DNA of 64,000 nt from Eledone cirrhosa (lineage: Eukaryota): positions 11,532,001 through 11,596,000 of the forward strand of contig OZ024764.1 in assembly GCA_964016885.1 (NCBI GenBank), read 5' to 3'. Shown one piece after another: positions 13,816 through 63,946 of the stretch; position 1 is the first letter of the stretch, and the number at the start of each line of letters is the position of its first letter. The position numbers and the translations under genes are program-made. The notes below the pieces were generated by a model. That model was not told the DNA's origin. It saw only the letters and a list, made by a program, of their open reading frames with translations, and did not search any database.

Positions 13816-14070
13816 GGTTGTCTATTTTCAGGGTATGTCAATATTTATTTATAAAACTAATTCTGTATTCTATTTTATCTGATGAAAGCGCACCATAATT
13901 TGCCTTGGTGGCCCTTGAAATATGTATAATAAAATAAATATGGTTTTATAAATATAGTTTCCATTTATTAATATATTGTATATTTACTCCACTAAACTGT
14001 TGAGTGCTTTATATCAGTTATAAAAAATTTTTAAGTTTGTTGAATCCCAACAAATTGAATATAAGCTCTG
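13816..14070 (+). mobile_element. Single-arm copy of the Penelope-like pLTR family also found at 17257
   Basis: Matches 17450-17670; hammerhead at 13872-13935; tail actc-cactaaactgtt-gagtgc. Confidence 0.75.
13872..13935 (+). ncRNA. Type-I hammerhead ribozyme motif
   Basis: attttat-CTGATGA-aag..cacca..tggtg..ctt-GAAA-tatgta-TA-ataaaat. Confidence 0.75.
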
Positions 14071-14071
14071 C

Positions 14072-15915
14072 ATATATATATATATATATATATATATATA
14101 TATATGTATATATATATGTATATGTATATATGTATGTATATATATATACATGTATATATATATGTATGTATATATATATACATATATATGTATATATATA
14201 TATATACATATATATGTATATATATATATACATATATATGTATATATATATATACATATATATGTATGTATATATATATACATATATATGTATATATATA
14301 TATATGTATATATATATGTATATGTATATATATATGTATATGTATATATATATATGTATATATGTATGTATATATATATATATATATATATACATATATG
14401 TATATATGTATGTATATATATATATATATATATATATATATATATATATATATATATATATATATATACATATATATATATATATGTATATATATATATA
14501 TATATGTATATATATATATATATATATATATATATATATACATATATATATGTATATATATATGTATGTACTAGTGTGTGGGGGAGGGAAGTGTGGTGGT
14601 GTGGGGCGGAGGGGTGTCACCCATATGAACTGTCACTTCTTTCATTTAAAATATTCTCTGTAATGACATTCCTATTTCATATATTCTGGGTTCTGTCTGT
14701 GTGTATATATATATATATATACACACATACATGTATATATATATATATATATATACATACATTTATATACATATATATATACACATACATTTATATATAT
14801 ATATACATATATATATATGTATATATATATATATTACGTTTCTGACCCTCCCAAAGCATAACAGTATATATATATATAAATGTATGTGTATATATATGTA
14901 TATCAATGTATGTATGTATATATATATATATGTGTATGTATGTGTATATATATATATATGTATATGTATGTATATATGTGTATATATATATGTATATGTA
15001 TGTATATACATATGTATATACACACACACACACACACACACATATATATATATATATATATATATATATATATATATATATATATATATATACATTCACT
15101 TATATACACATATATATACATATTATATATATTTGTGTGTGTGTATATATATATACACTCAACACATACTCAAAACCCATTCACAATATGTAGAGAGGGG
15201 CAATTTGCAATAGGGTGTTGTGTGTGTGTGTATGTGTGTATGTGTATGTGTGTGTATGTGTGTGTTTCTTTGTCTGTGTTTGCTTGTGTGTGTGCCATTT
15301 GCCTAATTTTGAGACAGCTTGTCAGTTGTGTTGTGTCTAGGGGAAAGTGTGTATACACATACATATATACATGTATACATACATACATATATATATATAT
15401 ATATATATATATATATATATATATATATATATATATATATATATATACATACACACACACACATATATATATATATATATATACATATATGCATACATAA
15501 ATACATGCATATATACATACATATATACACATATATATATACACACATACATACATACATATATATATATATATACACACATACATACATATATATATAC
15601 ACACACATACATACATATACATATACATGCACATATATATATATATATATATATATATACACACACACATATATATATATATATATATACATATATGCAT
15701 ACATAAATACATGCATATATACATACATATATACATATATATATATACACACATACATACATACATACATATATATATATATACACACACACATACATAC
15801 ATATATATATACACACACATACATACATACATATACATATACATGCACACATACACACACACATACACGTAGGCTCACACACATACACACTGACACATAC
15901 ACACACTGACACATA
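14072..15915. repeat. (TA)n/(TACA)n microsatellite field
   Basis: Direct reading. Confidence 0.9.
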
Positions 15916-16157
15916 CATTGTGAGCTAGGCTTTACCATACATCATATGCCATATGTCATACAACAGAATACACAAAGACATACTTTACCTTCGTCATAAA
16001 CTCAGATTATCAGGAAATATCACTGTGATATATCCATGACATATCACACGGCTGAGAGAATGTCCTTCTCGTTCATTTTTCTATATTTTTCTTATACTGA
16101 TAGACATGTCTAATATCGCTAGAAGAAAAATGTTGATTAGGTTTTTATTACATTGCG

Positions 16158-16290
16158 AGGCTGCGAATTGGTACAGTGGTTACAATGTCAGAAAGCTTTC
16201 TGCTTTCTGAATTCAAATCCTGCCGAGCTCAACTTTGCCTTTCATCCATTCAAGGTAGATGAAAAAAATACCAGTTTAATACTGGGGTTG
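16158..16290 (+). mobile_element. Old copy of tRNA-headed SINE family B
   Basis: ttcaaatcc B-box followed by 'aactttgcctttcatcc...aaataccagt'. Confidence 0.65.
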
Positions 16291-16556
16291 ATTGTTTTTC
16301 TCTATATCTTTCTCACTCTCTATCCTTCCATGGTTAGGTGATGAATAAAACCACCATACTTCCTGAAAAGTGATAGACAGTCTGTTTCTTGATGTTTGGC
16401 GTTTATCAAAACCATACACTCACCTGCCGCCGCTGAAAATTATAGAAGGTGGATTCTTATAGAATTCCAGTAATAATCAGGAGCTGATATACAGAGTGAT
16501 TGCCGGTCCAACAAAAATTAGGTATCAGGATTGCTGCTCTGAAATAGCGATGTATA

Positions 16557-60465: not shown

Positions 60466-60499
60466 AATAATAATGATTCCACATCTGATTCTGACCTAG

Positions 60500-62347
60500 A
60501 GACAGTAGGCCCCTCCAAACCTAATATACACCCCCAACCCACTACCCCTATTCCATCCTCCCACTCCCGCCAACACCACCCTATAAAGTTATGTTGGTAC
60601 CACAACATCCAGTCCAAACTAATGAGGTCGTGTAGGTGTTACGACAAAATAACACACAGTCCACACTGTAATGTGGCCCTGTAGGTAACACAGTAAAAAG
60701 GCTTCCAGTCTACACTGTAAGGTGGTAGTGTAGGAGACACAGTAAAAAGGCTCCCAGTCCACGCTGTAAAGTGGTCATGTAGGAGACACAGTAAAAAGGC
60801 TCCCAGTCCACGCTGTAAAGTGGTCATGTAGGAGACACAGTAAAAAGGCTCCCAGTCCACACTGTAAGGTGGTCATGTAGGAGACACAGTAAAAAGGCTC
60901 CCAGTCCACGCTGTAAAGTGGTCATGTAGGAGACACAGTAAAAAGGCTCCCAGTCCACACTGTAAAGGGGTCATGTAGGAGACACAGTAAAAAGGCTCCC
61001 AGTCCACACTGTAAGGTGGTCATGTAGGAGACACAGTAAAAAGGCTCCCAGTCCACGCTGTAAAGTGGCCATGTAGGAGACACAGTAAAAAGGCTCCCAG
61101 TCCACACTGTAAAGTGGTCATGTAGGAGACACAGTAAAAAGGCTCCCAGTCCACACTGTAAAGTGGTCATGTAGGAGACATGGTAAAAAGGCTCCCAGTC
61201 CACGCTGTAAGGTGGATGTGTAGGAGACACAGTAAAAAGGCTCCCAGTCCACACTGTAAAGTGGTCTTGTAGGAGACACAGTAAAAAGGCTCCCAGTCCA
61301 CACTGTTAAGGGGTCATGTAGGAGACACGGTAAAAAGGCTCCCAGTCCACACTGTAAAGTGGTCATGTAGGAGACACGGTAAAAAGGCTCCCAGTCCACG
61401 CTGTATAGTGGTCATGTAGGAGACACGGTAAAAACCTCCCAGTCCACACTGTATAGTGGTCATGTAGGAGACACAGTAAAAAGGCTCCCAGTCCACACTG
61501 TAAAAGGGTCGTGTAGGAGACACAGTAAAAAGGCTCCCAGTCCACGCTGTAAAGTGGTCATGTAGGAGACACGGTAAAAAGGCTCCCAGTCCACGCTGTA
61601 TAGTGGTCATGTAGGAGACACGGTAAAAACCTCCCAGTCCACACTGTATAGTGGTCATGTAGGAGACACAGTAAAAAGGCTCCCAGTCCACACTGTAAAG
61701 GGGTCGTGTAGGAGACACAGTAAAAAGGCTCCCAGTCCACACTGTAAAGGGGTCGTGTAGGAGACACAGTAAAAAGGCTCCCAGTCCACGCTGTAAAGTG
61801 GTCATGTAGGAGACACGGTAAAAAGGCTCCCAGTCCACGCTGTAAAGTGGTCATGTAGGAGACACGGTAAAAAGGCTCCCAGTCCACGCTGTATAGTGGT
61901 CATGTAGGAGACACGGTAAAAAGGCTCCCAGTCCACGCTGTAAAGTGGTCATGTAGGAGACACGGTAAAAAGGCTCCCAGTCCACACTGTAAAGTGGTCA
62001 TGTAGGAGACACGGTAAAAACCTCCCAGTCCACGCTGTAAGGTGGATGTGTAGGAGACACAGTAAAAAGGCTCCCAGTCCACACTGTAAAGTGGTCATGT
62101 AGGAGACACGGTAAAAAGGCTCCCAGTCCACACTGTAAAGTGGTCATGTAGGTGACACAGTAAAAACCTCCCAGTCCACACTGTAAATGTGGTTGGTGTT
62201 AGGAAGGGCATCCAGCCGTAGAAAACCTGCCCGACAGTCCTATACAAGTGAGACATGGTAACCCGATCAATCTTGCCTCAAGTGGGACAATTACCGCCTA
62301 ACCCATGGTAGTGTGGAAGATAGGCGTTAAACAATGATGATGATGAT
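60500..62347 (+). mobile_element. RTE-tailed SINE-like element with ~31 internal 49-bp units
   Basis: 5' part is homologous (inverted) to 59900-60095; array 60655-62190; 3' end ggaagggcatccagccgtagaaa...cgttaaacaatgatgatg. Confidence 0.85.
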
Positions 62348-63221
62348 CTGAAGTATTTCCAGCAGAAGAAATGTCTTTTGTGTAATAAAACAACAATGTA
62401 TTTTCATTTTTTTTTTACTACTTTGGTGTGATCTTTTGATCACATGGATTTAGGAGTTAATCTACTATTGTTGTGGTTGTTGTTGTTGTTGTGGTTGTTG
62501 TTGTTGTGGTTGTTGTTGTGGTGGTGGTGGTTGTTGTTGTGGTGGCTGTTTTTGTTATTAAAACTGGGAAGGTCAAATAATTTATATATATATATATGTA
62601 TGTATGTGTATATATATATATATGTATGTATATATATATGTATGTATGTATGTATATATATATGTATGTATGTATATATATATATATGTATGTATATATA
62701 TATATATGTATGTATATATGTATATATATATATGTATGTATATATATATATATATATATATATGTATGTATATAGCTGTATGTATATATATGTATGTATA
62801 TATATATATATATGTATGTATATATATGTATATATATATATATATATATAGATAGATAGAGAGAGAATGACGAGATGGAGAGAGAGAGAGAGAGAGAGAG
62901 AGAGAGAGAGAGAGAGAGAGAGAGATGATGAGATGGAGAGAGAGGGAGAATGACAAGATGGAGAGAGAGAGAGAGAGAGAGAGAGCATTAAATAAAGCTA
63001 CTTGTAAGAGAACATTTTCATTGTAAGGAAATGTCATTGTAAATAATGTTAGCTTCTGTATTGTTGTTGCTGTTGTTTGATGGAGTGTTTGTTGTAACAT
63101 TTGCTTCAATAATGTCCTTGAATGTGGTGCTCCAGTTTGGCCGCAGTCTAAAGACTGAAAGCAGTAGAAGAATGAAAGAATCTCTCTCTCTCTATATATA
63201 TATATATATATCATCATTATT

Positions 63222-63612
63222 GAGGGTCGGACGATTGGCAGTATCGGTGGAGGGCGGTGGATTGGCAGTATCGGTAGAGGGTCGGACGCCATGCTTTCCA
63301 GCATAGTTACGTCCCTTTACGATCTGAGTTCAAATCCCGCCGAGGTTGACTTTGCCTTTCGTCCTTACAGGGGTCGATAAAATAAAGTACCAGTAATGCA
63401 CTGGGTAATTGCTGACCTTGTGCCTAAAGTAGAAACAATTATTGAGGGTCGGACGCCATGCTTTGACCCATAGTGTTACGGCCCTTGCCATTCTGAGTTC
63501 GAATCCCGCCGAGGTTGACTTTGCCTTTCATCCTTAAGGGGTCGATAAAAATAAAGTACCAGTAATACACTGGGGTAATTGCTGGCCTTGTGCCTAAAGT
63601 AGAAACAATTAT
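63222..63612 (+). mobile_element. Two tandem SINE family B copies
   Basis: 63252-63440 is full length; 63444-63612 is 5'-truncated. Confidence 0.9.
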
Positions 63613-63758
63613 TATTGTTGTCATTTTATGTCCACTTACCATGGTGGAGGAGTTTGGACTCCATATATACATGTATGTATATATATATATATATACATGT
63701 ATGTATATATATATATACATGTATGTATATATATATATATATACATATATATATATAT

Positions 63759-63946
63759 GAACGAGTAGGACCCCGAGGGCTGAGCTCAAGCCGTTTCGAC
63801 GGCTAATTCTGTCCAGAATTAGCCGTCGAAACGGCTTGAGCTCAGCCATCGGGGTCCTACTCGTTCCTATTACCCACTCTACTACCCTAAGTATTGAGTA
63901 CTTTGGTGCGTTATGGTCCACCTGGTTCCTTACCACATTTCCTTTG
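63759..63946 (+). mobile_element. Fold-back element: near-perfect 108-bp hairpin plus tail
   Basis: 63759-63866 is a palindrome centred on ttctg-tc-cagaa; tail has actc-tactaccctaagtatt-gagtac. Confidence 0.8.

Follow-up and report, generated by a model that had tools for sequence, protein, structure and literature searches.

In a stretch of 64,000 nucleotides (nt) of the Eledone cirrhosa genome (contig OZ024764.1, positions 11,532,001 to 11,596,000; hereafter the window), short repeats embedded in (TA)n are, as judged from their sequence, the 3' ends of Hydra-clade Penelope-like retroelements, and carry a bulged stem-loop close to one end. This hairpin is one of a pair (hairpin 1 and hairpin 2), and a head-to-head insertion of these elements has one end just before hairpin 1 and the other just before hairpin 2. 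The motif is a genuine and probably undescribed cis-signal within a known clade, and the two hairpins, as protein-docking sites on a single RNA, would rather probably set two starts of reverse transcription, one per target strand. The suspicion raised in an earlier note on this DNA, namely that Penelope-type elements carry a conserved cis-signal whose distance to the boundary of the arm is nearly constant, was borne out, and the signal is kept across families and host lineages.

The hairpin motif in the window

In the window, the strict motif was taken as ACTC-N(11-17)-GAGTRC, and GCTC-type variants were counted separately. It occurs nine times there, compared with a mean of 0.65 in shuffled sequences (0 of 100 shuffles reached nine), which rules out a chance origin. 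Eight matches lie in element tails. The remaining one, at 58801, absent from the earlier note, was rejected as a genuine copy and classed as a chance match, as it lacks a hammerhead and a (TA)n flank and was missed by the covariance model. The eight strict matches and two GCTC variants (35917 and 36141-36166) lie 40-60 nt from the ends of short repeats embedded in (TA)n, and a covariance model run over the window returned exactly these ten copies (E <= 7e-4), five of which belonged to its training set. The positions reported earlier were confirmed for the plus-strand copies at 13986 and 17604 (family A), 35031 (family B), 63876 (family C) and 35917 (family E), as well as for the minus-strand copies at 28730-28755 (family C), 22427-22447, 44076-44096 and 47139-47159 (family D); a further minus-strand copy, placed near 36140, is present at 36141-36166 (family C) but starts with GCTC instead of ACTC. 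In the fold-backs at 17257, 34667, 36170 and 63759, whose inverted arms had been described as ending near the hairpin, the matches reach -2, 0, -4 and -5 relative to the hairpin, respectively; with (TA)n as the flank, these values are upper bounds. The window contains only 5'-truncated element products (Table 1) and, since every copy stops before hairpin 2, the second hairpin is absent from it.

Insertion ends lie next to two hairpins

Relatives were collected by searches of the same genome, which returned 30 loci per family. In read-through copies, whose tail continues into the next unit, hairpin 2 follows directly after the tail end and precedes the start codon in families A, B and C. The site is spanned by 24 of 30 loci in family B (a few with one substitution), by 8 of 30 loci plus L343-L345 in family C, and by L388-L390 in family A. 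Both hairpins sit between the hammerhead and the start codon. The signal that had been described as a single hairpin is therefore real but one of a pair, with the second member just beyond the tailed end. A further set comprised 79 loci encoding relatives on metagenome contigs (from the best 80 of 358 confirmed); among the 22 that keep an upstream hammerhead core, 14 have two strict hairpins. Hairpins 1 and 2 are 55-94 nt apart in 18 families, with anchors set by a fixed nearest-RCTC rule that mis-anchored 2 of the 18 spacings (family C = 78 nt), and hairpin 2 ends 17-65 nt before the open reading frame (ORF).

The distance between hairpin and boundary, whose constancy the earlier note had proposed to check, was found to vary little. 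Microsatellite-flanked ends form two tight clusters per family, with tail-less ends ~3-7 nt 5' of hairpin 1 and tailed ends ~3-9 nt 5' of hairpin 2, and other nearby AT-rich tracts were rarely used. Because the target is (TA)n, the following offsets of the last matching base are upper bounds: -6 before hairpin 1 (13/32) and -3 before hairpin 2 (14/20) in family A, where another 11/32 hairpin-1 ends lie at -14 owing to a subfamily difference at the anchor; -7 or -4 (34/42) and -6 or -4 (47/54) in family B; -5 (29/32) and -3 (38/51) in family C; and -10 to -4 before hairpin 2 (22/24) in family E. Alignable 5' and 3' copies were available for 21 metagenome loci. Leaving aside 6 that the contig end truncates and 1 that reads through, 11 of the 14 others have a 3' end 0-6 nt before a hairpin. 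Reads of three restriction site-associated DNA sequencing (RAD-seq) runs and contigs of one run, from libraries dominated by few loci, showed (TA)n loose ends on the intact family B copy L182 at 1563/1571 and 1654/1656, where hairpin 1 is at 1571 and hairpin 2 at 1661, and read depth collapses past 1655.

Many near-full-length copies (among them L377, L387, L326, L221, L241, L274 and L283) have a 5' boundary ~20 nt or less upstream of the hairpin nearest the start codon, and the same boundary, within ~20 nt, was seen in L184, L189, L193 and L218; it may represent the site where transcription begins or where reverse transcription halts. Upstream of the ORF, three family E loci (L190, L199 and L219) show a canonical first, a degenerate second and a GCCC-type third hairpin-like site. 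In a further Hydra-type family (L357, L360 and L373), the loop region of the hairpin that precedes the start codon measures 25-45 nt.

Head-to-head insertions combine one end of each kind

At loci selected for a tail, 88 head-to-head pairs were counted, of which 79 combine a tailed with a tail-less end, 9 contain an unclassified end and none combines two tailed ends. Incidental pairs with both ends classified are mixed in 29 of 30 cases (26 of 27 without the three window copies), the other being tail-less at both ends; six more contain an unclassified end. The far end was then predicted for 18 long family B copies whose inverted arm had been typed beforehand (11 + 3 by classification, 4 by eye). 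The far 3' end, ~3.5 kb away, lay within the fetched stretch in 16 of the 18 and was of the opposite type in all 16 (13 one way, 3 the other), while independent ends would give opposite types in half of the copies. The arrangement noted earlier, with a tail-less inverted arm, does occur, but in 15 long family B copies the inverted arm is the tailed one.

The same genomic ends would result if the RNA were cut or terminated just 5' of each hairpin and the two resulting RNA 3' ends then underwent ordinary 3'-end target-primed reverse transcription. Two independent RNAs should, however, pair at random, at odds with the lack of tail-plus-tail pairs (0/88 and 0/30) and the uniformly opposite far ends (16/16), and internal initiation has been demonstrated in a related clade (Frangieh et al. 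2024, PMC11167929). RNA processing is thus a quite unlikely origin of the two ends.

Structure and conservation of the hairpin

The earlier note had recognized a real motif but drawn it as a plain 4-bp hairpin; it is instead a bulged stem-loop of the form RCTC-stem-loop-stem-2 nt bulge-GAGY-RC, with the consensus GCTC-Y..R-TY/TA-GAGC-AC-T. At the metagenome loci, the strict motif was found 65 times in sense and 2 times in antisense orientation upstream of the ORFs (11.3 kb), compared with 26 and 3 in the 23 kb downstream, 30 and 5 in the 166 kb of matched ORF range, and 4 and 5 in the 47 kb of far flank. The ORFs fall into 58 clusters, 38 of which have at least one hairpin, and de-duplication left 65 hairpins. 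In these, the first upper pair is Watson-Crick in 63/65 (C-G 36, T-A 26; mean 31.9 and maximum 46 over 10,000 permutations), the second in 43/62 and the third in 29/41, and the pairing register holds only with the 2-nt bulge (47/65, as opposed to 2, 1 and 1 for other registers). In an alignment of 28 sequences, 95.4% of the cells are paired and covariation reaches 0.478, compared with 0.177 after shuffling and <=0.214 when slid; kinship among the sequences was removed in part only from these statistics. Covariation, which the earlier note had proposed to model, is strong across 38 families. In four window copies, the outer lower pair has changed from G-C to A-U.

Inspection by eye of published Hydra consensuses, including coral, sea cucumber and copepod elements among those bearing the motif (Craig et al. 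2021, PMC8557442), identified it clearly or as a close variant in 4 of 6. Hydra-1_Ajap has two copies at its 5' end, Hydra-2_Amil and Hydra-2_Ajap have one each in the tail, Hydra-1_Crog has variants at both ends and Hydra-1_Obim a degenerate copy, and none was found by eye in Hydra-1_Amil. A search of the available supplement of this study with six 8-mers gave 25 matches, judged by eye and with some possibly relevant sites hidden by line breaks, among which the hairpin was present in 4/4 from the Hydra file and 1/21 from Naiad/Chlamys. One Naiad 3' untranslated region (UTR) in that supplement contains one hairpin of this form, perhaps by chance, at a distance from the end. The motif was not found in one Neptune-type 3' end (L418).

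Identity of the elements

The family B copy L182 encodes an ORF of 800 amino acids with YRDD and YFGST..R..NH motifs (reverse transcriptase [RT] and C-terminal GIY-YIG-type domain), and families C and E have ORFs of 711-715 amino acids. Common to the proteins of B, C and E are DKT (rather than DKG), RW[KRT] (RWT, RWR, RWK), YRDD, a CxCX5C linker plus a GIY-YIG-type domain at the C terminus, without CCHH but with CxxC and CxH. These motifs were read from the alignment, Pfam and PDB searches of the element proteins having given no significant match. Protein identity is 38-42% among B, C and E; for A and B, compared over part of the RT, it is 56%. The Hydra clade has been characterized by DKT, an RWK-type motif, the CxCX5C linker, a C-terminal GIY-YIG domain without CCHH but with CxxC and CxH, a hammerhead in the pseudo-long terminal repeat (pseudo-LTR), (TA)n targets and a length generally < 3 kb (PMC8557442). 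The present elements agree with it in protein motifs and insertion into (TA)n, have putative hammerheads in the pseudo-LTR, and differ in their tails (~60-95 nt, versus 30-40 nt) and in their tandem units, which reach 3.5-3.7 kb (3,543 nt in C, ~3,660 nt in B) owing to long 3' UTRs. Putative hammerhead cores with stems lie 5' of the hairpin in A, B, D and E, and the family C core deviates.

The families bearing the motif had been regarded as unrelated; however, the Hydra-clade proteins of A, B, C and E are homologous. The motif is therefore inherited, and convergence in unrelated families is ruled out. In a FastTree phylogeny of the RT, which comprised only the genome families and 71 metagenome relatives, four genome families group on a single branch with support 99, next to those relatives. 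For family D, no linked ORF and no read-through copy were found, the ORF beside L098 belonging to another family, and among eight matches of a pattern search the four inspected were flanks or neighbouring insertions; its placement in the Hydra clade is inferred from hammerhead, hairpin, tail and target.

The complete architecture is illustrated by L031, in which two family B matches 3.8 kb apart form one element: an inverted arm without a tail is followed by a pseudo-LTR, the ORF and a second, tailed pseudo-LTR that borders on (TA)n. Tandem pseudo-LTRs, an inverted 5'-truncated copy and a one-sided tail were seen in L031, L183, L343 and L344. Dozens of the 150 scored family B matches retain an 821-codon open frame, some of them in tandem arrays, pointing to apparently recent activity.

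Other affiliations were rejected. Neptune, Naiad, Chlamys or Poseidon membership is incompatible with the lack of CX2-5CxxC plus CCHH and of an N-terminal endonuclease. Non-LTR retrozymes are non-coding head-to-tail hammerhead monomers, whereas these copies derive from coding elements, of which they are 5'-truncated ends, either head-to-head or single. Terminal hairpins of the Helitron or miniature inverted-repeat transposable element (MITE) type do not apply either, since the elements encode an RT and are 5'-truncated. Rfam gave no hammerhead among the 150 of 602 window matches listed, which contained only microsatellite-driven microRNA matches; ARAGORN gave no match, and no relatives were found in the viral contigs searched.

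Proposed mechanism and its alternatives

The two kinds of end could arise as follows. Each RNA hairpin would serve as a docking site for the RT-endonuclease protein of the element, and the nuclease would cut both strands of the (TA)n target. Each cut end would pair with a short A/U stretch, often UAUA-like, just 5' of a hairpin, in line with the enrichment of alternating TA at these places (see below), and prime internal reverse transcription there, such that one target end would be extended from before hairpin 1, yielding the tail-less arm, and the other from before hairpin 2, yielding the tailed arm. With one start per hairpin, the length of the tail would therefore equal the hairpin spacing. 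The two cDNAs would stop at variable points and then be joined by microhomology, in line with the junction palindromes and small duplications seen in copies.

This scheme would extend results for PAc of Anolis carolinensis (Poseidon clade), for which both target strands were cut and extended in vitro, with two internal RT starts bounding the tail, and whose protein is predicted to dimerize (PMC11167929), though the PAc start region is a different structure. PAc requires a structured RNA near the ORF start, its two starts lie inside one AC-rich stem-loop within the ORF, and the RNA depicted in Fig. S1 of that study lacks the twin-hairpin motif. A duplicated signal and a one-of-each rule are not described in the available text of that source.

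Palindromic junctions, present in several window copies, would also be expected if fold-backs formed by self-priming on an antisense template, a route put forward for Penelope elements of rotifers (Arkhipova et al. 2013, PMC3846280); the hairpins would then be signals for stopping or switching. The inverted pseudo-LTRs described there share the head-to-head arrangement, a tail at one end and palindromic or microhomology junctions, and differ in being attributed to self-priming; no cis-signal is named in the available text. One end per hairpin, with both ends on (TA)n and 3.5 kb apart in long copies, is not readily explained in this way, making self-priming a highly improbable source of the pattern.

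Several observations weigh against the twin-hairpin mechanism. Part of the covariation stems from two hairpin classes (T-A in 12/18 first and C-G in 16/18 second hairpins). The hairpins are weak on their own (-3.6 to -8 kcal/mol) and not always present in the predicted fold of longer RNA. Six of the 22 hammerhead-keeping metagenome loci have one strict hairpin and two have none, and of the 14 informative metagenome ends 2 lie elsewhere and 1 is ambiguous. A family D copy in the window stops inside hairpin 1, contrary to the rule. In family E, GCTC opens the sequence that follows the tail end, but the site is degenerate and was missed by the covariance model, while a better-formed third hairpin (GCCC-type) ~58 nt further on marks no (TA)n-flanked end. 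Family G (window 1182-1626) mixes a tailed and a tail-less arm in 5/5 fold-backs without the motif; not every family, then, requires the hairpin for this pattern. Finally, in the lower stem, A.C oppositions (4/65) outnumber G.U (1/65), and the sense strand is therefore not favoured.

The last point bears on a DNA-level function, in which the GIY-YIG endonuclease would recognize the hairpin in cDNA or element DNA and cut a few bases away while resolving an insertion intermediate. The sense A.C pairs would be G.T on the cDNA strand, the hairpin letters are near-invariant, the Drosophila virilis (D. virilis) tail is reported to be needed for endonuclease recognition (PMC11167929), and the tail has been ascribed to endonuclease-mediated resolution (PMC8557442). 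Yet in the sole element assayed in vitro the RT starts at the boundaries of the tail (PMC11167929), and both ends abut (TA)n at the 3' side of the element, with the hairpin outside the retained piece, as for a template-side signal. We regard recognition at the DNA level as unlikely.

Family G, with its one-sided tail, would fit a model in which ends are set solely by TA-like microhomology with (TA)n and the hairpins serve translation, packaging or a promoter near the start codon. The short distance between hairpin 2 and the ORF points in the same direction, as does the enrichment of alternating TA (>=4 nt) just 5' of the hairpins (14/35 sites, versus 6.6 in shuffled sequence and 4/35 one window further 5'). 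The remaining 21/35 sites nevertheless lack such a 4-nt run, nearby AT-rich tracts seldom serve as ends, and the offset is kept across divergent families; microhomology as the sole determinant is accordingly very unlikely.

Features of the window

Table 1. Copies of the hairpin-bearing families and other motif matches in the window.
Feature	Position	Strand	Details
Family A 3' end, single arm	13815..14072 (start approximate)	+	Hammerhead core 13879; hairpin 1 13986-14007; tail to 14072, then (TA)n
Family A fold-back	17257..17670		Tail-less inverted arm from 17257 (-); direct arm: hammerhead core 17492, hairpin 1 17604-17625, tail to 17670
Family D 3' end	22386..22495	-	Hairpin 1 22427-22447; tail to ~22386
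Family C short copy	28683..28790	-	Hairpin 1 28730-28755; tail to ~28683
Family B fold-back, inverted arm	34667..35113		Tail-less, from ~34667 (-); hammerhead core 34764
Same family B fold-back, direct arm	34667..35113		Hammerhead core 34924; hairpin 1 35031-35057; tail to 35113
Family E 3' end	35800..35977	+	Hairpin 1 (GCTC form) 35917-35939; tail to ~35977
Family D copy	35993..36080	-	Hammerhead core 36070; ends inside hairpin 1 (exception to the rule)
Diverged family C fold-back	36094..36331	-	Hairpin 1 36141-36166; arms 36171-36331
Family D copy	44035..44210	-	Hammerhead core 44162; hairpin 1 44076-44096; tail to ~44035
Family D short copy	47098..47176	-	Hairpin 1 47139-47159; tail to ~47098
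Family C fold-back	63759..63949		Tail-less inverted arm from ~63759; hairpin 1 63876-63901; tail to ~63949
Chance match to the strict pattern, outside any element	58801..58825	+	

The family G fold-back at 1182-1626 lies in (TA)n; both of its arms bear a hammerhead, and a tail of ~50 nt is present on one side; no linked ORF was found in seven further loci of this family. Two more repeats contain hammerhead cores, one at 32500-32705 (core 32543), which belongs to a multi-copy family without the motif, and one at 16557-16984 (core 16813), which is a complex fold-back. Broken pieces of an ORF for a reverse transcriptase of the long interspersed nuclear element (LINE) type lie at 11353-13638. The transposase remnant at 50540-51442, with inverted repeats of 99 nt, is presumably Mariner-type. 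Abundant tRNA-like short repeats at 35424-35770, 22025-22350 and 28300-28500, which we take to be short interspersed nuclear elements (SINEs), are often located in the same (TA)n tracts as the Penelope ends.

Relation to known systems and significance

The tail, the inverted arm and the two RT starts are already known for Penelope elements. In LINE-1 twin priming, one RNA is reverse-transcribed from both ends of the target, with a second priming site at random and arms that share no overlap. In L2/RTE-type LINEs and SINEs, a single 3' RNA stem-loop inside the copied 3' end recruits the RT; in the present elements, by contrast, the piece that a hairpin would initiate ends just short of that hairpin. 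The words 'hairpin' and 'stem-loop' do not occur in the available text and supplement of PMC8557442. The motif, its duplication, its offset to both ends and the strict one-of-each count were not found in the available open-access literature, including passages of PMC8969392 and 10.64898/2026.07.22.740005.

How Penelope-like elements, the closest retroelement kin of telomerase, produce tandem, inverted and one-tailed insertions is an open problem (PMC8557442), and one such element alone works in vitro (PMC11167929). A short, duplicated and covarying signal at a fixed offset to both ends makes RNA recognition and the two-start mechanism directly accessible to mutation, and the many apparently intact genome copies are test material for this. 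The hairpin can also serve as an annotation marker for the boundaries and tail length of Hydra-clade elements. In a broader and more tentative version, which we consider possible but somewhat short of probable, a dimer of the Hydra-clade RT on two tandem bulged hairpins would run two simultaneous internal target-primed reverse transcriptions, one per cut (TA)n end. If this is true, a portable hairpin of 20-30 nt would programme the RT start of a telomerase-related enzyme on any RNA. A fixed reaction with two sites and two enzymes would then also account for the inverted, one-tailed build of Penelope elements at large.

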